Shown here: piece after piece, positions 12,650 through 19,639 of the stretch
Layout: each line of letters begins with the position of its first letter
Numbering within the stretch: the first letter of the stretch is position 1
DNA from: an uncultured SAR86 cluster bacterium
GTDB lineage: Bacteria > Pseudomonadota > Gammaproteobacteria > Magnimaribacterales > D2472
Direction of reading: 5' to 3'
NCBI GenBank assembly: GCA_902558375.1
Contig: CACEDQ010000001.1
Span: forward strand, 25,929-89,928
Length of the DNA stretch: 64,000 nt
Translations under genes and position numbers: made by a program
Notes under the pieces: model-generated
What the model saw: the letters and a program-made list of their open reading frames with translations, nothing else
What the model was told of the DNA's origin: nothing
Database searches by the model: none

Positions 12650-13050
12650 AAGCAGTTCGAAAAAAAAGACTACAAACAGTTTTACTAATTCTAGCTACAT
12701 CTGCGCTTGGATCTTTTTTTATTATTCGAGCCTTGGATTCAAATTTAGATTTTTTCTATACACCCTCAGAAATCTTTTTAGAGGAAATTCCAGAAAATAA
12801 AAGAATAAAAATTGGAGGTATGGTTTTAGAAAACTCAGTAATAAGAGAGAAAACTAAAATATCTTTTATTGTTTCAGACTTTCAAGGTTCAATTAATGTT
12901 GAATTTGATGGAATAGTGCCAGATTTGTTTAAAGAAGGCAGTGGTGTTGTTGTGTTGGGTTATTTAAAAGATAAAACCATAATTGCTGAGGAAGTGTTAG
13001 CAAAGCATGATGAAAACTATATGCCGCCAAGTATAGACATAGAAAAATAA
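12646..13050 (+). CDS. ccmE: Heme chaperone
   Basis: PDLFKEG, LAKHDENY. Confidence 0.96.
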   Translation: MKAVRKKRLQTVLLILATSALGSFFIIRALDSNLDFFYTPSEIFLEEIPENKRIKIGGMVLENSVIREKTKISFIVSDFQGSINVEFDGIVPDLFKEGSGVVVLGYLKDKTIIAEEVLAKHDENYMPPSIDIEK

Positions 13051-14945
13051 TGATCATAGAGGCAGCCCAATTTTTAACTATCCTTGCTACAGGATTATTT
13101 TTTTTATGTTTTATATTTTCTATTTTTTTTAATGTTAACGATGTAAATATTATTAAACTTATATCTAGAATATATTCTCATAGTTTTTTTCTATTTTTGT
13201 CCTCTTTTTTGATATACGTTTGGCTGGCAATAAATGATAATTTTAGTGTTCTATACATAGCTCAACACTCAAATACGAATCTGCCAGTTTTTTACAAAAT
13301 ATCTTCGATATGGAGTGCGCATGAGGGGTCGATGTTTCTCTGGATCATATTTCTTAGTTTGTGGGGAGCAATTTATAATTTTTCAGTTCATAACAACGAA
13401 CCACTTAAAGCAAGAACCGTTGGAGTAATATCCATAACAACTGTTGGTTTTTTATTGTTTTTACTACTAACGTCCAATCCATTTGAAACAATACTTCCTC
13501 TGCCTCCAGAAAATGGAGCTGATATCAATCCTGTGCTTCAAGACCCGTTGTTAGCAATTCACCCGCCAACACTTTATCTTGGTTACGTTGGTTTTGTAAT
13601 CGCATTTGGACAAGCAATAGCTTTTTTGATAGAGGGCAATTCTAGTATTAATTGGGAAAAACAGGTTAGATTTTGGTCAATAATTGCTTGGTCATTTTTA
13701 ACTTTAGGGATTACTTTAGGTAGCTGGTGGGCATATTATGAATTAGGATGGGGAGGGTATTGGTTTTGGGATCCGGTTGAAAACGTTGCCCTAATGCCCT
13801 GGTTAGCAGCAACAGCTTTTATTCATTCGCTAAGCGCATCATCAAAGTCATCAATCTTAAGAATTTGGACTATTTTATTGTCTATTTTAGTTTTTTCATT
13901 AAGTCTATTTGGAGCATTTATTGTAAGGTCAGGAATCATAGATAGTGTTCATTCTTTTGCAAACGATCCGGAGAGGGGCCTTTATTTGCTGGCTTTTATT
14001 GGGATATTAGTAATGACGTCTCTTATTTTATTTTCTTATAGACTTACAATATTGATTTCAAATAAAAGAATAGTTTCCTTATCAAAAGAATCTTTTATAT
14101 CAATTAATAATATTTTTTTTGGAACATTAATTTTTTCAACAATGCTTGGTGTAATGTATCCATTAATATATGAGTTTATTTATGATCAAAAAATAAGTGT
14201 AGGCGCACCATTTTACAATGCCATATTTGTTCCAATTACGCTCTTAGCATGCCTGTTTCTTCTTTTTTCTATTGAGTCTAAATGGCAAAGCAAACTTAAA
14301 TTTGCTTTTTTGAGTAACCCTCTAATAATTAGCTTTGTATTTTCTTTGTTTATTACTTTTTTATCATTTAAATTTTATTCTGTATCCAGAGCCTGGACGC
14401 TAGCTTCGTTATTCATTGGCTCACTAATAATTAGTAGATATATCATGGTAATTTATGCCTATATTTTTCATAGAAAATTTGTAAATATATATAGTGTTTT
14501 AGCCCATTTAGGACTTGGATTATTAATAATATCTATAGCCCTTAATAATGATTTTAGTTCAGAAAGAGCATTGAATATTAAAATCAATGAAACAGAAACT
14601 TATAAAAATCATGAGATTACATTTAACAATTTACAACTTTCAGAAGGCCCAAACTATGAATCTGTAAAAGCAGATTTCATAATAGAAAATAAAAACGGAA
14701 ATAAATTTTCTTTAAATCCTGAAAAAAGAAAATACTTCGTTAGAGGTCAAATCACAACTGAAACAGCAATACATGCATCCTTATTAAAAGATATATATTT
14801 AACAATTGGTGATCAACTAGATGATGGAAGTTGGATTGTAAATGTTCAGTTTAATTATTTTATAAGATGGATATGGTTTTCAGCCACATTAATGATTATT
14901 TCAGGTTTATTTTTAGCTAGGTCATTAAATAGAGTGCACTCATGA
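13050..14945 (+). CDS. ccmF: Cytochrome c heme lyase
   Basis: HEGS, HPP, WAYYELGWGGYWFWDPVEN, SVHSF. Confidence 0.97.
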   Translation: MIIEAAQFLTILATGLFFLCFIFSIFFNVNDVNIIKLISRIYSHSFFLFLSSFLIYVWLAINDNFSVLYIAQHSNTNLPVFYKISSIWSAHEGSMFLWIIFLSLWGAIYNFSVHNNEPLKARTVGVISITTVGFLLFLLLTSNPFETILPLPPENGADINPVLQDPLLAIHPPTLYLGYVGFVIAFGQAIAFLIEGNSSINWEKQVRFWSIIAWSFLTLGITLGSWWAYYELGWGGYWFWDPVENVALMPWLAATAFIHSLSASSKSSILRIWTILLSILVFSLSLFGAFIVRSGIIDSVHSFANDPERGLYLLAFIGILVMTSLILFSYRLTILISNKRIVSLSKESFISINNIFFGTLIFSTMLGVMYPLIYEFIYDQKISVGAPFYNAIFVPITLLACLFLLFSIESKWQSKLKFAFLSNPLIISFVFSLFITFLSFKFYSVSRAWTLASLFIGSLIISRYIMVIYAYIFHRKFVNIYSVLAHLGLGLLIISIALNNDFSSERALNIKINETETYKNHEITFNNLQLSEGPNYESVKADFIIENKNGNKFSLNPEKRKYFVRGQITTETAIHASLLKDIYLTIGDQLDDGSWIVNVQFNYFIRWIWFSATLMIISGLFLARSLNRVHS

Positions 14946-15472
14946 CAGTTTTTTTAAGAGTATTTATATTAAGCGTATCTCTGATGTTTTTTTACTTTTT
15001 TTATTTATATATTGAAGATGATAAATACTATCCAGGAGCAAGTTTTCAAACTTCAAATATGCCATTGTTTGAACTTGAAGATTTATATTCGGATGGCGTT
15101 ATAACAAATTCAGATATAGAAGGCGCACACTTAATTAACGTCTGGGCAAGCTGGTGCATTACATGCCGAATTGAGCATGGTTTTTTAGTAAAACTAAGCT
15201 CACAAGGTATTCCTATAATGGGGTTAAATTATAAAGACGAAAGAATTGATGCAATAAATTGGATTACAAAGTTTGGTGACCCTTATAAATTTATTATTCA
15301 TGATCTAAAAGGCGAATTAGCCTTAGATATGGGTGTCACTGGCGCACCTGAAACTTTTTTAATAAATAATGGAAAAATTATTGCTCATTACAGGGGTGAG
15401 GTAAATGAAATGATTTGGAGTGATGTTTTTTCTCCAATTATAAAAAAGGAGAACCTTTTTAATGACAATTAA
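14942..15472 (+). CDS. ccmG: Thiol:disulfide interchange protein
   Basis: NVWASWCITC, GVTGAPETF. Confidence 0.93.
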   Translation: MTVFLRVFILSVSLMFFYFFYLYIEDDKYYPGASFQTSNMPLFELEDLYSDGVITNSDIEGAHLINVWASWCITCRIEHGFLVKLSSQGIPIMGLNYKDERIDAINWITKFGDPYKFIIHDLKGELALDMGVTGAPETFLINNGKIIAHYRGEVNEMIWSDVFSPIIKKENLFNDN

Positions 15473-15839
15473 ATCGTTGTTATTTATATTTTTTATATCC
15501 TCAACAAATGTTTTGGGCGATTCTTTATATAATTTTGAAAATATAAAAGATGAGGAAAGGTTTTATAGTTTAATAAAAGAAATTAGATGTCCAAAATGTA
15601 CTAGTGGATCACTTGCAAGCTCTAATGCTCCGGTATCTGAGGATATCAAAAAGAAAATTATAGAATTAATTAAAGAAGGCAAAACTGATGATGAGATTAA
15701 GACTTTTCTGTCTGATAGGTTTGGAAATGAAGTCTTATACAATCCAGGATTGAATAGCAGTACGTATATTCTCTGGATTGCACCAGTATTATTTTTATTT
15801 ATTGCTTTGTTAATATTCTTTTTTAGAAGAAAGACATAA
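15462..15839 (+). CDS. ccmH: Cytochrome c biogenesis protein H
   Basis: IRCPKC, RFG..VLYNP, C-terminal TM helix. Confidence 0.93.
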   Translation: MTIKSLLFIFFISSTNVLGDSLYNFENIKDEERFYSLIKEIRCPKCTSGSLASSNAPVSEDIKKKIIELIKEGKTDDEIKTFLSDRFGNEVLYNPGLNSSTYILWIAPVLFLFIALLIFFFRRKT

Positions 15840-16618
15840 TGTTTTTTATATACTTCTTAGCTTTCTTTGCATTCATTCCAATCTTGGCATATCTGTTATC
15901 GCAAAATACAAACAATAAAGGATATATTTTTGGAATCTCTTTTTTAGTTGTTCTTGTTTGTTTATTTACTGTTGTTGGAAAATACTCATTCTTAGGCTCA
16001 ATTAAAAATCAAAAGATCAATTCAGAAATTCTTATGAATATTAACTTTAATAATAAAATTTCTGAAAATATTACAAGAGAATTTAATAACAATATTAGCA
16101 ATGAAGATAAAGTGTATTGGCTTCAAGGTTATATTAATAAAGCCATTGAAGACAGTAAATTCATTGCTGCTGAAAGCTTAATTTCTATCTCAGAGCAATA
16201 CTTTCAAACTACAGATGAAAAATTTATTTTTTATACCTTATACACAAAACTTAGAGACGCAAAATTCCCTGATTTTGCAAAGTCTAAATTAATTATAAAT
16301 CTTCATTCTCCACCAGAGTGCTCTAATTTTTTTGGTACAGCAGAAGTATTTATCATGAATGGTCCAAAAATACCCATAGCCTCAAAAAAATTCACGGATT
16401 CTTCTGAATTTGAGTTAGAAAATATTCATTCCTCCATTCCTGGTTTTGATTTGGCTTCTGCCTATCTAAATCAAGAAACTCTCGATTTAAAAGTATCATT
16501 AAACTGCCCTGCTACAGCCTCTATTTTTTATTCTGAAAACGCTTTGTTAATTGATAACAATCAGCCTGTAAATTCCTATAATATTAAGGCAAATGAATGG
16601 TTTAAAAGGGAACAATAG
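15839..16618 (+). CDS. Divergent CcmI/CycH-like protein
   Basis: Follows ccmH; two N-terminal TM helices; NGPKIPIA..IPGFDLAS resembles the CcmI C-terminal domain. Confidence 0.55.
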   Translation: MFFIYFLAFFAFIPILAYLLSQNTNNKGYIFGISFLVVLVCLFTVVGKYSFLGSIKNQKINSEILMNINFNNKISENITREFNNNISNEDKVYWLQGYINKAIEDSKFIAAESLISISEQYFQTTDEKFIFYTLYTKLRDAKFPDFAKSKLIINLHSPPECSNFFGTAEVFIMNGPKIPIASKKFTDSSEFELENIHSSIPGFDLASAYLNQETLDLKVSLNCPATASIFYSENALLIDNNQPVNSYNIKANEWFKREQ

Positions 16619-16651: not shown

Positions 16652-19639
16652 ATGCAGCTTAAACATATAAAACTCGCAGGTTTTAAAAGTTTCGTAGATC
16701 CAACGAAGATATCTTTTCCTTCAAATTTAGTAGGCGTAGTCGGCCCTAATGGCTGTGGTAAATCAAACGTAATTGATGCCGTAAGATGGGTTTTAGGAGA
16801 GCTCTCTGCTAAAAATCTTCGTGGGGAGTCTATGGTAGACGTCATCTTCAATGGCTCAGAAAATAGAAAGCCATCAGGACAGTGCAGTATTGAATTACTT
16901 TTTGATAATTCTAGTGGAAAGATTGGTGGCGAATATACTTCCTATAATGAAATTTCCATCAAAAGATTAATGACAAGAGATGCACAGTCAACTTATTTTA
17001 TAAATAGCACAAAGTGTAGAAGAAAAGATGTTCAAGATATATTTCTAGGAACAGGTTTAGGACCAAGTTCTTATGCAATTATTGAACAAGGAATGGTCAG
17101 TAGGCTTGTAAGCGCAAAGCCAGAAGAGCTTAGAACCCATATTGAAGAGGCTGCTGGTGTCTCTAAATATAGAGAAAGAAGAAGAGAAACGGAAAGTCGA
17201 ATTAAGAAGACAAAAGAGAACCTATCAAGAGTTAAGGATATAAAGGATGAAATAGAAAGGCTTATTAGAAGGCTTGAAAATCAAGCTAAAGCTGCTGAGA
17301 AATATAACAAGTTAAAAGAAGAGGAGAATCAGAAACAGACTGATATAGCAATTCTTTATTCACTTGAAGCTAAAAACAATAAAGACAAACTCCAAAAGAA
17401 CTTAGAAGGCTTAAATAGAGATCTCAAAATAAAACAGGCCGAATCAGATTCAAAACAAGCACAAATCGATGATTATAGAACCCAGAATGAGTCTGTAATT
17501 AATGCTTATGAGGATGCTCAGAAAAATTTTTATACAATAGGTGCTGAAATAGCTAAGCATGAATCAGATCTTCATAACATCAATAAATCTGAAGCCACTA
17601 ATTTAGAAGCCCTTGAAAGAGCTCAAAAAAGTTACAAAGATGCTCTTCAAAAAGAGTCTGCATTTAAGGACTTAAGTCCAAAAGAAAAAGAATTAAAGCT
17701 AAATATTGCTATTGTTAAGGCTTTTGATGCTCTTGAGAAAAAAAATACAATCGGTGTATCAATTAAACCGCTCGAAGACCAAATAAACATCAAACAAAAT
17801 GAATTAGATTCGAAGCAGGATATTTTTGACGGTATTAAAGCTAATAAAGACAAAATCGTAAATGAGATAAAAGATATTCAAAAAAATCAATTTTCTATTG
17901 ATGCTGAAATTGCAAGAATCGAAGGCTCAATAAAAAATCTTAATAATTTAGCAGAAAATGCAAAATCAGATTTTGAAGAGGCTTCACGTAATTATGCAAA
18001 TGCTGTTGAAAAAGAGTCAAATAATGAACATTTAAGCCCTAAAGAAAAAGCAATACACTTACTAGATTCAATCACAGACTTACTTAAATCATTTGGATCA
18101 AGCGCAGATAAAGTGAATTCAAAATTATCTGAGCTGAAAGAACTCCTAATGAGCATATTAAAAATTGCTTCTGATCAATCAAAAAGCTTTACTGCAGAAT
18201 ATTTAAATCAAAAAAATAGAGCAGAAGAGGCTATTAACAAAGCTAAGGAAGATAAAAAAATTGCTGAAACTAAGCTTGAAGACCTTAACAGTCAAAGAAT
18301 CTCAATTGGTAATCAACTGGAATCACAGATTAATATTCAGACTAATATAGATAACCAATTGCAAGAAATGGATAGCAATAAATCTGTTGTATCAAATGAA
18401 CTTAGAAACCTTGAGAAAGAAATTAATGATTTAAGGCTTGAGCTAAGAACTCACGAAATTAATTTAGAAAATGCTTCAATGGTTTTAGAGAAAGCAGAGG
18501 TAAGTATTTCAGACCTTGATTCAGCACAATACAAGGGGATGGATTTAAAAGGGCTTGAGGTCTCTTTAGATGAAATACAAAAAAACATTGCTCAATTAGG
18601 TTCATTTAATTTAGCTGCTCCCGAGGAGTACTTGAGCAGAGAAAACGAATTAAAAAAATTAATTGAAGAAGCTGAAATAAGGAAGTCTGAAATTCAAGTA
18701 ATTATGGATGGCTTGGTAGAAAAGAGCTCTCAAGCAGAATCTGAATTAACAGCCATAAGGCAAAAACAATCTCAGTTTAATGAAAGCTTAAGAGACCTTG
18801 AAAATCAAAAAAATGTAGCTGAATTAGATCTTAAATCAATTGCAGAGAAAGTTACTAATCTGAGGTTGGATTTAAAAACCCATGAAATTAATTTAGATAA
18901 CGCAAATACTAAAATTAAAGAGGCTGGTTTAAATATTGAAAATATAGATTATTCAAAATATGAAGACATGGATCTTAATGTCCTCCAAGATTCACTTGCA
19001 GATATACAGGCAAAAATCATACGTCTAGGAGCTATCAACCTTGCAGCTCCAGAGGAAATAGCTGCTGAATCAAAAAGGAAAGAAGAGCTAGATGTTCAAT
19101 ACAACGATCTTACTGAAGCTCTTGAAAAACTTACAGGCGCCATAAAAACAATTGATCTTGAAACAAAAACAAGATTTCAAGATAGTTTTGATTCAATAAA
19201 CAAAAGAATGAAAGAGGTATTTTCAAAGTTATTTGGTGGTGGTTTCGCTGAACTTGCTCTTACTGAAAATGATGCACTAAATGCTGGTGTGGTAATTATG
19301 GCTAGACCTCCAGGAAAGAAAAATTCATCAATTTCTCAATTATCAGGGGGTGAAAAAGCTTTAACTGCTTTAGCTCTTGTTTTTGCAATTTTTGAACTCA
19401 ATCCTGCGCCTTTTTGTATTTTAGACGAAGTAGATGCTCCATTAGACGATTTAAATACTATGCGTTTTATAAATATGGTTGAGGAGATGTCAAAGACAGT
19501 TCAATTCATATTTATAACCCATAATAAAGTTTCTATGGAAAAAAGTGATCATTTAATGGGAGTTACAATGCAAGAAGCTGGTGTCTCTAGAATGGTTTCT
19601 GTTGACGTCAATCAAGCTCTAGAGTTTGCTGAAGTATGA
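16652..19639 (+). CDS. smc: Chromosome segregation ATPase SMC (atypical: no recognisable hinge, duplicated arm segments)
   Basis: GFKSF, GPNGCGKSN, IEQG, EEAAG, LSGGEK, LDEVDAPLD, ITHNK; upstream of zipA. Confidence 0.95.
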   Translation: MQLKHIKLAGFKSFVDPTKISFPSNLVGVVGPNGCGKSNVIDAVRWVLGELSAKNLRGESMVDVIFNGSENRKPSGQCSIELLFDNSSGKIGGEYTSYNEISIKRLMTRDAQSTYFINSTKCRRKDVQDIFLGTGLGPSSYAIIEQGMVSRLVSAKPEELRTHIEEAAGVSKYRERRRETESRIKKTKENLSRVKDIKDEIERLIRRLENQAKAAEKYNKLKEEENQKQTDIAILYSLEAKNNKDKLQKNLEGLNRDLKIKQAESDSKQAQIDDYRTQNESVINAYEDAQKNFYTIGAEIAKHESDLHNINKSEATNLEALERAQKSYKDALQKESAFKDLSPKEKELKLNIAIVKAFDALEKKNTIGVSIKPLEDQINIKQNELDSKQDIFDGIKANKDKIVNEIKDIQKNQFSIDAEIARIEGSIKNLNNLAENAKSDFEEASRNYANAVEKESNNEHLSPKEKAIHLLDSITDLLKSFGSSADKVNSKLSELKELLMSILKIASDQSKSFTAEYLNQKNRAEEAINKAKEDKKIAETKLEDLNSQRISIGNQLESQINIQTNIDNQLQEMDSNKSVVSNELRNLEKEINDLRLELRTHEINLENASMVLEKAEVSISDLDSAQYKGMDLKGLEVSLDEIQKNIAQLGSFNLAAPEEYLSRENELKKLIEEAEIRKSEIQVIMDGLVEKSSQAESELTAIRQKQSQFNESLRDLENQKNVAELDLKSIAEKVTNLRLDLKTHEINLDNANTKIKEAGLNIENIDYSKYEDMDLNVLQDSLADIQAKIIRLGAINLAAPEEIAAESKRKEELDVQYNDLTEALEKLTGAIKTIDLETKTRFQDSFDSINKRMKEVFSKLFGGGFAELALTENDALNAGVVIMARPPGKKNSSISQLSGGEKALTALALVFAIFELNPAPFCILDEVDAPLDDLNTMRFINMVEEMSKTVQFIFITHNKVSMEKSDHLMGVTMQEAGVSRMVSVDVNQALEFAEV
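17330..18049 (+). repeat. Two diverged tandem 360-nt (120 aa) units in the SMC N-terminal arm
   Basis: IAI at 17345/17705, IKQ.E.DSKQ at 17429/17789, LSPKEK at 17672/18032; each pair exactly 360 nt apart. Confidence 0.9.
18197..19054 (+). repeat. Two diverged tandem 429-nt (143 aa) units in the SMC C-terminal arm
   Basis: EYL at 18197/18626, HEINL at 18452/18881, NLAAPEE at 18608/19037; each pair exactly 429 nt apart. Confidence 0.92.

Follow-up and report, generated by a model that had tools for sequence, protein, structure and literature searches.

Whether a bacterial condensin can work without the hinge of its Smc subunit is the question raised by one gene in the window analyzed here, a 64,000-nt stretch of contig CACEDQ010000001.1 (GenBank assembly GCA_902558375.1, positions 25,929 to 89,928) from an uncultured SAR86 cluster bacterium. 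SMC proteins are commonly recognized by their hinge, which is regarded as a defining feature of theirs, being the dimerization site, the DNA-binding site, and a proposed DNA gate. The initial annotation of the gene, made from the letters and their translations, described an smc with no hinge, in which the arms are joined by a helical apex of about 49 aa, and proposed that it encodes a minimal condensin with a different mode of dimerization. The results presented below suggest that an abundant, free-living marine lineage with a small genome uses this hinge-less protein as the only Smc of its Smc-ScpAB complex, under strong purifying selection, and such a lineage would provide a natural test of the purpose of the hinge and of arm length.

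Identity of the gene and its genomic context

The 995-aa product scored 855.2 bits against the NCBIfam equivalog model TIGR02168 (cut-off 567.35) and 190 bits against Pfam SMC_N, and its best sequence matches in the PDB were the Smc heads 5xg3 and 3zgx (about 1e-106). All ATPase motifs were found (Walker A at residue 31, Q-loop at 143, LSGGE at 897, Walker B at 921, D-loop at 925, and H-loop at 955), which, together with the SMC_N score, bears out the earlier claim that both halves of the ATPase head are intact. Other identities were tried and rejected: (i) RecN, since TIGR00634 gave only 30.4 bits versus a cut-off of 407.85, (ii) Rad50/SbcC, since the best Rad50 model gave 64 bits versus 700 and the CxxC motif is absent, and (iii) MukB, the N-terminal domain of which (PF04310) went unmatched in this 72%-complete genome. 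Judged from its sequence, the gene appears to be the functional Smc of the lineage and an ortholog of bacterial Smc, though without the canonical hinge. Since the hinge is missing, we classify the protein as a hinge-less descendant and ortholog and not as a structurally canonical Smc.

The features of the gene and of its downstream neighbor are collected in Table 1. A ZipA_C-encoding gene lies directly 3′ of smc, and the coordinates of the genes in relatives give the order smc-zipA-ligA, so that this is indeed the orthologous smc-zipA locus, as had been proposed. Stretches of zipA and of the ligase gene were uncovered in some of the RNA-seq runs described below, to which we attach no meaning. 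The check for scpA and scpB recommended initially gave a positive answer for both: the genes are adjacent on contig C4 of the same genome (ScpA, 92 bits; ScpB, 173 bits), and ScpB was present in all 41 genomes of the order that were searched. ParB had no match in this 72%-complete genome; it was found in 37 of 40 relatives of at least 90% completeness and in three of three genomes from the same genus. No second SMC was detected in the genome at its 72% completeness, the other SMC-type hits being frames of 359, 535, and 921 aa.

Table 1. Features of the smc gene and its neighbor in the window (res, amino acid residues of Smc)
Feature	Position in the window	Strand	Remarks
smc, hinge-less Smc ortholog	16652..19639	+	995 aa + stop; ORF call, Pfam, NCBIfam
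N-terminal half-head, res 1-165	16652..17146	+	Walker A GPNGCGKS res 31-38; Q-loop 143-147
N strand of neck / head-proximal arm, res 166-220	17147..17311	+	Well conserved
N-strand arm module copy 1, res 221-340	17312..17671	+	Head-proximal, slow-evolving; clusters with the single module of 732-aa orthologs
N-strand arm module copy 2, res 341-460	17672..18031	+	Apex-proximal, faster-evolving; begins with LSPKEKELKL, a copy of the apex-element start
Mid-arm discontinuity, N strand, res 333-344	17648..17683	+	pLDDT <50 in the full-length model; falls in the arm block of highest conservation (res 331-360)
Apex element, res 461-515	18032..18196	+	LSP helix break, cap helix 462-480, turn 481-484, start of return helix
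C-strand arm module copy 1, res 516-658	18197..18625	+	Apex-proximal, faster-evolving; joint motif occurs a second time at its end, as LGSFNLAAPEEY
Mid-arm joint-like break, C strand, res 615-656	18494..18619	+	Loop, short helix 632-648, loop; conserved
C-strand arm module copy 2, res 659-801	18626..19054	+	Head-proximal; clusters with the single module of 732-aa orthologs; canonical joint motif LGAINLAAPEE at its end
C strand of neck (res 802-860) and C-terminal half-head (res 861-995)	19055..19636	+	LSGGE 897, Walker B FCILDE 921, D-loop, H-loop
zipA, 212 aa	19636..20274	+	ZipA_C, 49 bits; 4-nt overlap between its start and the smc stop; synteny marker of the smc locus

Absence of the hinge and structure of the tip

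A Pfam scan of the 995-aa Smc gave no match to SMC_hinge (PF06470) at E ≤ 0.1, and none of six Smc proteins of the order tested with the same model matched it. The model recognized outgroup Smc of 1160 and 1166 aa (42.3 and 41.4 bits), used as positive controls, but it also missed two long Smc (1155 and 1110 aa) at E ≤ 0.01, and for this reason the Pfam negative is weak by itself. Searched against whole genomes, PF06470 matched in none of 41 from the order and was also silent in 4 of 14 control genomes, two of which presumably carry a hinge-bearing Smc, so that little weight is given to this negative. The hinge of an outgroup protein (L046, residues 500-680), used as a protein query in a run without a positive control, likewise found nothing in the 41 genomes of the order. 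Neither the GX6GX3GG motif nor a Rad50-type CxxC hook was found on scanning the 995 aa, as had been noted before; the only cysteines are at residues 35, 78, 122, and 922, so that residues 123-921 contain none.

The AlphaFold2 model of the full-length protein (pLDDT 71) was devoid of beta strand throughout residues 170-861; it was built from an alignment of 35 rows and is poor in the heads, with pLDDT below 50 over residues 1-76. A model of residues 300-700 (pLDDT 87.5) consisted of a helix at 301-459, a second helix at 462-480, a turn at 481-484, and a helix at 485-614. The claim that there is no hinge fold was thus upheld by all-helical models and by the lack of a Pfam hinge match, and we consider the absence of the hinge confirmed at the level of the predicted structure, which is the decisive evidence. 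The model of the distal arm superposed on solved Smc arm fragments (5xg2, TM 0.78, rmsd 4.6; 5nnv, Z 12.7, rmsd 2.9 over 232 residues), and fold searches with it also returned generic long helical hairpins, such as those of chemoreceptors, the dynein stalk, Rad50, and toxin shafts, and no specific analog of the cap, while RecN did not appear among the entries listed, to which we attach no meaning; the ESM Atlas yielded unnamed fragment clusters only for residues 300-700. When compared by hhalign with 23 full-length outgroup Smc, the heads and necks aligned confidently and about residues 320-700 did so without confidence, so that the apex could not be mapped to hinge or arm columns and the end points of the deletion were not placed.

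The 49-aa peptide first taken for the apex corresponds to residues 467-515 (window positions 18050-18196). Its helical nature was retained in the AlphaFold2 models, while its extent was not: the arm turns within 2-5 residues, located between residues 480 and 484, and the remainder of the peptide is a short cap helix and about the first 30 residues of the return strand. Seven residues of the tip (L461, P463, E465, L495, L499, Q509, and K511) are invariant in the 995-aa and the 727-732-aa forms. By sequence, two hydrophobic seams run along the cap helix and another two along the beginning of the return helix, more than a two-helix hairpin needs. At the same time, the apex is less conserved than the mid-arm blocks (entropy of 0.9-1.8 versus 0.3-0.7 bits), which is not what one would expect of a sole dimer interface. 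A two-copy complex prediction of residues 410-550 scored 0.18 versus a mark of 0.42 and speaks neither for nor against dimerization at the tip.

RecN dimerizes via the tip of its coiled coil, and the initial annotation had considered a similar arrangement for the present protein. Two monomers would then be joined tip to tip and antiparallel into an extended rod that bears one head at either end, and assembly would proceed via head engagement between dimers. RecN and Rad50/SbcC do resemble this Smc in having an ABC-type head together with a coiled coil that is antiparallel and has no globular hinge at its end, the present protein has neither hinge nor zinc hook, and RecN was not found in the 72%-complete genome. 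Nevertheless, the scores for both families lie far under their cut-offs, the CxxC motif is absent, and the arms of this protein are three to four times as long as those of RecN. Moreover, the protein is an Smc ortholog that has retained the kleisin ScpA and ScpB, and a kleisin bridging the two heads of one dimer fits a parallel arrangement, which makes RecN-like pairing very improbable.

Another possibility, which we regard as unlikely, is that the protein is functional with its tips unjoined. The ATP-engaged heads and the ScpA bridge alone would then pair two Smc molecules, the arms would act as free or rod-aligned levers, and no compartments other than those of the kleisin and the heads would hold DNA. 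Such an arrangement agrees with the lower conservation of the apex relative to the neck, joint, and mid-arm blocks, with the strong divergence of apex sequences among the four families of the order, and with the universal retention of ScpA and ScpB. It is more difficult to reconcile with the invariant tip residues, with the double hydrophobic seams, and with a dN/dS of 0.00-0.13 for the apex (five pairs, dS < 1). In addition, the hinge of Bacillus subtilis Smc is described as replaceable by a constitutive dimerizer, the Rad50 zinc hook, and replacement constructs of this type, some with truncated arms, are listed in the strain table of that work (Burmann et al. 2017, Mol Cell 65:861, PMC5344682). 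We favor an arrangement in which two arms, lacking a hinge, would instead pair either at or near the tip, where helices of the conserved and doubly hydrophobic cap would pack against each other, or along the rods.

Arm duplications, distribution in the order, and selection

The gene contains DNA repeats with spacings of 360 and 429 nt, and sliding-window comparison of the protein with itself matched residues 221-311 with 341-431 (E 1.6e-16) and residues 583-670 with 726-813 (E 1.7e-24), the copies being 26-41% identical. The insertions were clean in the alignment, at residues 315-434 and 515-657; the 995-aa form equals the 732-aa form plus tandem duplications of 120 aa in the N strand and 143 aa in the C strand. 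Of the distal copies, N2 forms one clade with a support of 99 and C1 one with a support of 96, and the duplication of each strand had one origin. The description of the protein as a minimal condensin could thus not be maintained: the 995-aa Smc is a re-lengthened derivative, and the minimal forms are the 727-736-aa orthologs of sister genera.

According to the AlphaFold2 secondary structure, the duplicated units comprise about 108 and about 120 helical residues. For Smc arms, a functional period of 91 aa and a superhelical period of about 99 aa have been reported (PMC5344682), and the idea that exactly one superhelical turn had been added was dropped, as the 120- and 143-aa units are unlike this published period of 91-99 aa. 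The arm is estimated at about 344 residues, near the canonical length, by a crude estimator, the mean of the two head-to-tip segments. A second joint-like break is predicted in the middle of the arm, where residues 333-344 lie opposite residues 615-656, and one may speculate that the arm folds at this point. A conserved discontinuity near mid-arm recalls the "elbow" arms of MukB, cohesin, and condensin; no MukB domain was found in the present, 72%-complete genome, and the structural match to the elbow 6h2x was poor (TM 0.23-0.24, rmsd 14).

We tentatively entertain, as a rather doubtful extension, the idea that the arm is built of a repeatable module, in which one joint-like break is combined with about 110 helical residues on each strand. 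Loss of the hinge and outer arm would have come first, and the canonical arm length would have been restored later by duplication of the module on both strands at once. The highly conserved mid-arm junction, in which the copied cap helix faces the copied joint motif, would in that case represent a new functional element, either an elbow allowing the arm to fold in half or a second arm-arm contact that replaces the hinge as dimerizer together with the cap. If this were true, Smc-ScpAB could function without the hinge fold and without a continuous arm, its requirements being limited to length, phase, and some closure of the tip.

Matches to Smc were found in 59 of 61 genomes, and the extracted open reading frames encoded 7 proteins of 995 aa, 13 of 727-736 aa, and 19 of 807-830 aa, one further frame ending at a contig end. 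In the genomes examined from the four families of the order, Smc is hinge-less and has 727-843 aa, apart from the 995-aa form, which is present in the source genus and one sister genus. In a phylogenetic tree with six full-length outgroups, the short forms made up a single clade (support 99), as did the 995-aa forms (support 96), and the loss of the hinge is common to the order and not peculiar to this gene. The same tree places these proteins inside Gammaproteobacteria, beside full-length gammaproteobacterial Smc.

The assembly consists of 31 contigs and is 72% complete, and 7 of the best 120 metagenome homologs are shorter gene calls, which might be taken to mean that the gene is a decaying remnant or that the duplications are an assembly artifact. 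Two of the seven were inspected and proved to be C-terminal parts, starting from residues 425 and 433, on long contigs, while 113 of the best 120 homologs (58-100% identity) have 995 aa. Of 28 coding sequences, 27 have exactly 995 aa and one has 996; the 27 show no indel, down to 64% identity to the query, and all 24 matches from the genus are free of stops. The ATPase motifs are intact, and dN/dS was 0.03-0.06 for the whole gene and 0.04-0.19 for the distal copies in the same five pairs as above. The repeat copies are too diverged to mislead an assembler, and contigs from four RNA-seq libraries (four other studies) cover the gene free of indels and run across the junctions of the repeats; DNA carry-over is possible in these libraries and strand and level are absent, so that the contigs attest to the presence of the sequence and are no proof of transcription. 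The notion of a remnant or an artifact is already contradicted by these data and is scarcely credible. Nor was there any sign of the situation envisaged initially, in which a full-length smc would exist elsewhere and this copy would be under no selection, since the gene is the sole SMC found in the 72%-complete genome and its dN/dS is low.

Proposed history and relation to known systems

The following history would account for these findings. The protein would descend from a canonical gammaproteobacterial Smc of about 1160 aa. Sequence and phylogeny show that an ancestor of the whole order dropped the hinge together with the distal portion of each arm strand, giving proteins of 727-843 aa. They also show that the joint-to-tip arm module was later duplicated in tandem on both strands in the common ancestor of the source genus and one sister genus, adding 120 aa to the ascending and 143 aa to the descending strand and yielding 995 aa, a length that has been held since without a single indel. 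The predicted monomer is one long antiparallel coiled coil that reverses via the short cap (helix 462-480, turn 481-484), and the protein would still be a kleisin-bridged, ParB-loaded, DNA-organizing motor. Taken as a whole, the data are probably best explained by a functional, hinge-less Smc of a Smc-ScpAB condensin with an arm re-lengthened by paired duplication, to which dimerization, DNA entrapment, and loop extrusion are ascribed by inference.

With canonical Smc of Smc-ScpAB complexes (B. subtilis and the approximately 1160-aa proteins of Cellvibrionaceae, Porticoccus, and Alcanivorax), the protein shares the head motifs, the joint motif LGxINLAAxEE, a predicted antiparallel coiled-coil arm, the partners ScpA and ScpB, the smc-zipA synteny, and probably a head-to-tip length similar to the 344 aa estimated here. 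It differs from them in that a helix-turn-helix cap forms the tip in place of a hinge of about 170 aa, and in that one module occurs twice in tandem along the arm, which has a second joint-like break at its middle.

Hinge-less oceanic SMC proteins as such are already known: a 2025 paper described them, solely from marine Actinobacteria, as a cluster assigned to Actinomycetes (Sussfeld et al. 2025, Environ Microbiome 20:65, PMC12153180). Together with the distribution in the order described above, this report bears out the suspicion that short SMCs exist in other marine bacteria. According to the sections of that paper that describe the cluster, its members are similarly abundant and oceanic, have SMC heads and an antiparallel coiled coil without hinge or CxxC, and are each apparently the sole Smc of their genome, whereas arm duplications, length classes, and partner genes are absent from this description. 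The two groups are unlikely to be the same clade: because of the gammaproteobacterial position of the present Smc in the tree, the hinge would have been lost independently of the Actinobacteria, which were compared by their description only. A full-text literature search returned nothing on the hinge-less Smc of this gammaproteobacterial clade or on its arm duplications.

The closest experimental parallel is provided by the engineered Mini-Smc and Rad50-zinc-hook Smc, in which the arms were resized and the hinge was swapped for another tip, and with which strong constraints on arm length were described (PMC5344682). The natural 727-843-aa forms resemble Mini-Smc, although they are not engineered; the tip of the present protein has no zinc hook, and its steps are of 120 and 143 aa. 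The lineage is therefore well suited to asking (i) what minimal closure of the tip a condensin requires, (ii) whether arm length or arm phase is under selection, as the B. subtilis Mini-Smc engineering suggested, and (iii) whether the mid-arm joint-like break may be an elbow, and its three natural arm-length classes, of about 730, about 820, and 995 aa, are ready-made constructs.

Identity, conservation and partners of the 995-aa protein

The 995-aa protein was found to be an Smc orthologue that has a working-looking ATPase, keeps its kleisin partners, lacks a hinge and is strictly conserved in length. It scored 855.2 bits on TIGR02168, the NCBIfam equivalog of bacterial Smc (cut-off 567.35), and 190 bits on Pfam SMC_N. 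Two other identities were rejected, i.e. RecN (30 bits against a cut-off of 408) and Rad50 (models giving at most 64 bits against cut-offs of at least 700). Among all PDB chain sequences, 58 distinct ones were matched, headed by the Smc head constructs 5xg3 and 3zgx (~1e-106), and the best-matching stretch was head or neck in every match row. The initial annotation had described both ATPase head halves as intact, and this was confirmed by the presence of all the head motifs: Walker A (residue 31), Q-loop (143), LSGGE signature (897), Walker B (921), D-loop (925) and H-loop (955).

The gene appears genuine. It was present and free of internal stops in 24 of 25 genomes of its genus (g1; own genome counted), and 27 of 28 coding sequences were exactly 995 aa long, the other being 996 aa, at identities to the query down to 64%. 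Of the best 120 metagenome homologues of residues 400-620, 113 were also 995 aa and seven were shorter; two of the latter (579 aa on an 88.7 kb contig and 563 aa on a 304 kb contig, 94-98% identity) contained only the C-terminal part, from residue 425 and residue 433 onwards, which might reflect sequencing frameshifts, split genes or real truncations. In four metatranscriptome libraries (four studies), smc was covered without indels by contigs of 92-99% identity; one of 1703 nt spanned window positions 16883-18585 and another of 3108 nt ran from 17204 across zipA into the next gene. These contigs rule out mis-assembly and lend weak support to expression of smc.

The partner genes ScpA and ScpB were checked for, and both were found side by side on another contig of the same genome (92 and 173 bits, respectively); ScpB was present in 41 of 41 genomes searched from the order (Magnimaribacterales). 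A full-length smc elsewhere had been considered in the initial annotation, and no second SMC was found in this genome (72% complete), nor were MukB, ParB or a RecN above cut-off. ParB was detected in 37 of the 40 relatives with a completeness of at least 90%, among them 3/3 of genus g1.

Features of the smc locus and of the Smc protein
Feature	Window (nt)	Strand	Smc residues	Support
Four successive overlapping ORFs (631, 176, 125, 259 aa)	13050-16618	+		Translations read by eye
smc, 995-aa ORF	16652-19639	+		ORF reading, Pfam SMC_N, TIGR02168
Conserved mid-arm copy	17642-17731		331-360	Column entropy
Apex peptide of the initial annotation	18050-18196		467-515
Conserved mid-arm copy	18452-18631		601-660	Column entropy
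zipA, 212 aa	19636-20274	+		Pfam ZipA_C (C-terminal FtsZ-binding domain), 49 bits
ATP-dependent DNA ligase, 427 aa	20274-21557	+		DNA_ligase_A_M 85 bits, DNA_ligase_OB_2
Self-match			221-311 vs 341-431	33% identity, E 1.6e-16
Self-match			282-350 vs 402-470	39% identity
Self-match			583-670 vs 726-813	41% identity, E 1.7e-24
Self-match			525-619 vs 664-762	26% identity
Insertion, 120 aa			315-434	Long/short alignment
Insertion, 143 aa			515-657	Long/short alignment
N1, head-proximal copy			221-340	Unit tree
N2, tip-proximal copy			341-460	Unit tree
C1, tip-proximal copy			516-658	Unit tree
C2, head-proximal copy			659-801	Unit tree

Absence of the hinge

The initial annotation had proposed that the two arm strands are joined by a helical apex of about 49 aa, with no hinge between them. 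The 995-aa protein gave no Pfam SMC_hinge match at E<=0.1, whereas the same scan detected the hinge in the full-length outgroup Smc of a Cellvibrionaceae member (1160 aa, 42.3 bits) and of Porticoccus (1166 aa, 41.4 bits). Since the model missed two other long Smc proteins (1155 and 1110 aa), we did not rely on this result alone; a genome-wide search likewise found a hinge in 0/41 genomes and failed on some of the control genomes. The absence appeared clearer from structural prediction than from the Pfam scan. A full-length AlphaFold2 model (mean pLDDT 71; heads poor, arms 75-90) had no beta strand between residues 170 and 861, and a separate model of residues 300-700 (pLDDT 87.5) consisted of a helix (301-459), a cap helix (462-480), a turn (481-484), a second long helix (485-614), a loop, short helix and loop across 615-656, and a final helix (657-699). 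The latter model resembled the solved Smc arm fragment 5xg2 (TM-score 0.78, rmsd 4.6 A) and B. subtilis 5nnv (Z 12.7, rmsd 2.9 A over 232 residues), its remaining fold matches being generic helical hairpins only. A sequence scan detected no CxxC, GX6GX3GG or arm cysteine in the protein. The proposal of a hinge-less Smc was thus borne out, and the protein is predicted to form one long antiparallel coiled coil, with a helix-turn-helix cap closing its tip.

In such an arrangement, two Smc rods might be bridged at their heads by ScpA and held together at their far ends by packing of the cap regions. As read from the sequence, two hydrophobic seams run along the cap helix AIHLLDSITDLL and two along the return segment LKELLMSILKIA, which fits a three- or four-helix bundle. 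The arm would measure about 344 residues, taken as the mean of the head-to-tip segments 170-480 and 485-861 and dependent on the boundaries set, a value that coincides with the arm length given as canonical for Smc of B. subtilis; the same boundary-dependent estimate gives about 212 residues for the short orthologues. According to Burmann et al. (PMC5344682), natural Smc arm lengths are multimodal (163, 238, 341, 423 and 515 aa), function of resized arms recurs with a 91-aa period, and the Rad50 zinc hook can stand in for the hinge. The duplication units described below (120 and 143 aa) differ from that period, and therefore we make no claim on phase.

In the full-text literature searched, the only report of natural hinge-less SMCs was that of Sussfeld et al. 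2025 (PMC12153180), the accessible text of which concerns a cluster that is abundant in the ocean and was attributed to Actinomycetes; its AlphaFold models show no hinge, and CxxC is missing. A hinge-less SMC as such is therefore already known, and the earlier suggestion that short SMCs may exist in other marine bacteria proved correct. However, that text includes no Gammaproteobacteria, contains the term SAR86 0 times and, in contrast to the present case, mentions neither arm duplications nor partner analysis; what is new is a probably independent gammaproteobacterial hinge loss followed by module-wise re-extension of the arm.

Distribution of short Smc forms and duplication of the arm

A search of 61 genomes of the order with the Smc protein (all at least 85% complete except the window's own) returned a match in 59, spanning all 17 genera. 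ORFs from 40 loci, one of them cut by a contig end, formed discrete length classes: 995 aa (7 loci; g1 and its sister genus g14), 727-736 aa (13 loci; other genera of family f1, and family f4, by our labels) and 807-830 aa (19 loci; families f2 and f3). The Pfam hinge was found in 0/6 scanned representatives, and compared with aligned full-length outgroups the short forms lack the hinge together with roughly 100-130 residues from the strand on either side of it; a separate hhalign comparison with full-length outgroups did not map the deletion end points onto the ancestral arm with confidence. In a maximum-likelihood tree (53 rows, 754 shared columns; a truncated row and two near-identical rows left out), which included six full-length Smc proteins of Gammaproteobacteria for comparison, all short forms fell into one clade apart from these (SH-aLRT 99), and the 995-aa forms made up one clade (96) nested among those of 727-736 aa. 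Of the best 150 matches in 1.84 billion cluster representatives, 140 were 1110-1220 aa long, and the ten shorter ones were members of the order's own classes (995, 732, 736, 810 and 827 aa), two fragments (639 and 516 aa) and three relatives from outside the order. One of these three, of 990 aa, keeps its hinge (26 bits), so its arms are short, whereas the other two, of 941 and 906 aa, gave no Pfam hinge match and may represent further hinge-less lineages or independent reductions of arm or hinge.

The smc gene of the window contains direct DNA repeats at spacings of 360 and 429 nt, and its product matches itself at the protein level (cf. Table). When 27 sequences of 995 aa were aligned with eight of 727-732 aa, the long form amounted to the short one with two clean insertions added (995 - 263 = 732), which flank a conserved apex block with invariant L461, P463, E465, L495, L499, Q509 and K511. 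In unit trees, the head-proximal copies of the N and C arm strands (N1 and C2) grouped with the unduplicated units found in the short orthologues, whereas the tip-proximal copies (N2 and C1) formed one clade each, with support of 99 and 96, on a long branch, and their internal topologies were similar. Each arm strand was therefore duplicated once, prior to the g1/g14 split; it is the distal module that is new, and in it N2 would pair with C1. Intermediates of about 852 or 875 aa were absent from the order genomes, best metagenome homologues and best cluster representatives searched.

The joint motif (LGxINLAAxEE type) is part of the C unit and so occurs twice in Smc, as LGSFNLAAPEEY (residue 647) and as LGAINLAAPEE (residue 790), and the N unit holds a copy of the cap start (LSPKEKELKL at residue 341 versus LSPKEKAIHL at residue 461). 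In the AlphaFold2 model, the extra copies face each other mid-arm (333-344 and 615-656), where confidence drops. Mid-arm copies are the most conserved arm parts of the 995-aa forms, with a column entropy of 0.3-0.7 bits versus 0.9-1.8 at the real tip. Nei-Gojobori dN/dS, calculated for 16 smc pairs and read from the five with whole-gene dS <1, was 0.03-0.06 for the whole gene, 0.00-0.13 for the apex, 0.04-0.19 for the distal and 0.02-0.13 for the proximal copies.

Neighbouring genes

The gene directly after smc encodes a ZipA_C protein, in agreement with the smc-zipA locus named in the initial annotation; on the NCBIfam ZipA equivalog, its product scored 22.6 bits, below the cut-off of 119.65. 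The reading frames of smc and zipA overlap by 4 nt, and the end of zipA directly adjoins the beginning of the ligase gene, suggesting that the three genes are a tightly coupled unit. The ligase occupies the position where relatives carry NAD-dependent ligA. Its top family was phage phrog_114 (304 bits, E 5.8e-90), and no bacterial NCBIfam ligase model came near its cut-off. A search for the NAD-ligase domain PF01653 gave no match in this genome (72% complete), nor in genomes at least 90% complete of g1 (0/3 others), g10 (0/3) and g11 (0/1), the last two being other genera of the order, whereas in families f2-f4 it is present in 27 of 28 genomes, mostly just 3' of smc-zipA. The essential LigA thus seems to have been exchanged in place for a phage-type ligase. 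On the 5' side of smc, the four overlapping ORFs resemble genes for cytochrome c maturation, their translations reading by eye as a membrane protein, a thioredoxin-like CxxC protein and a small CxxC protein.
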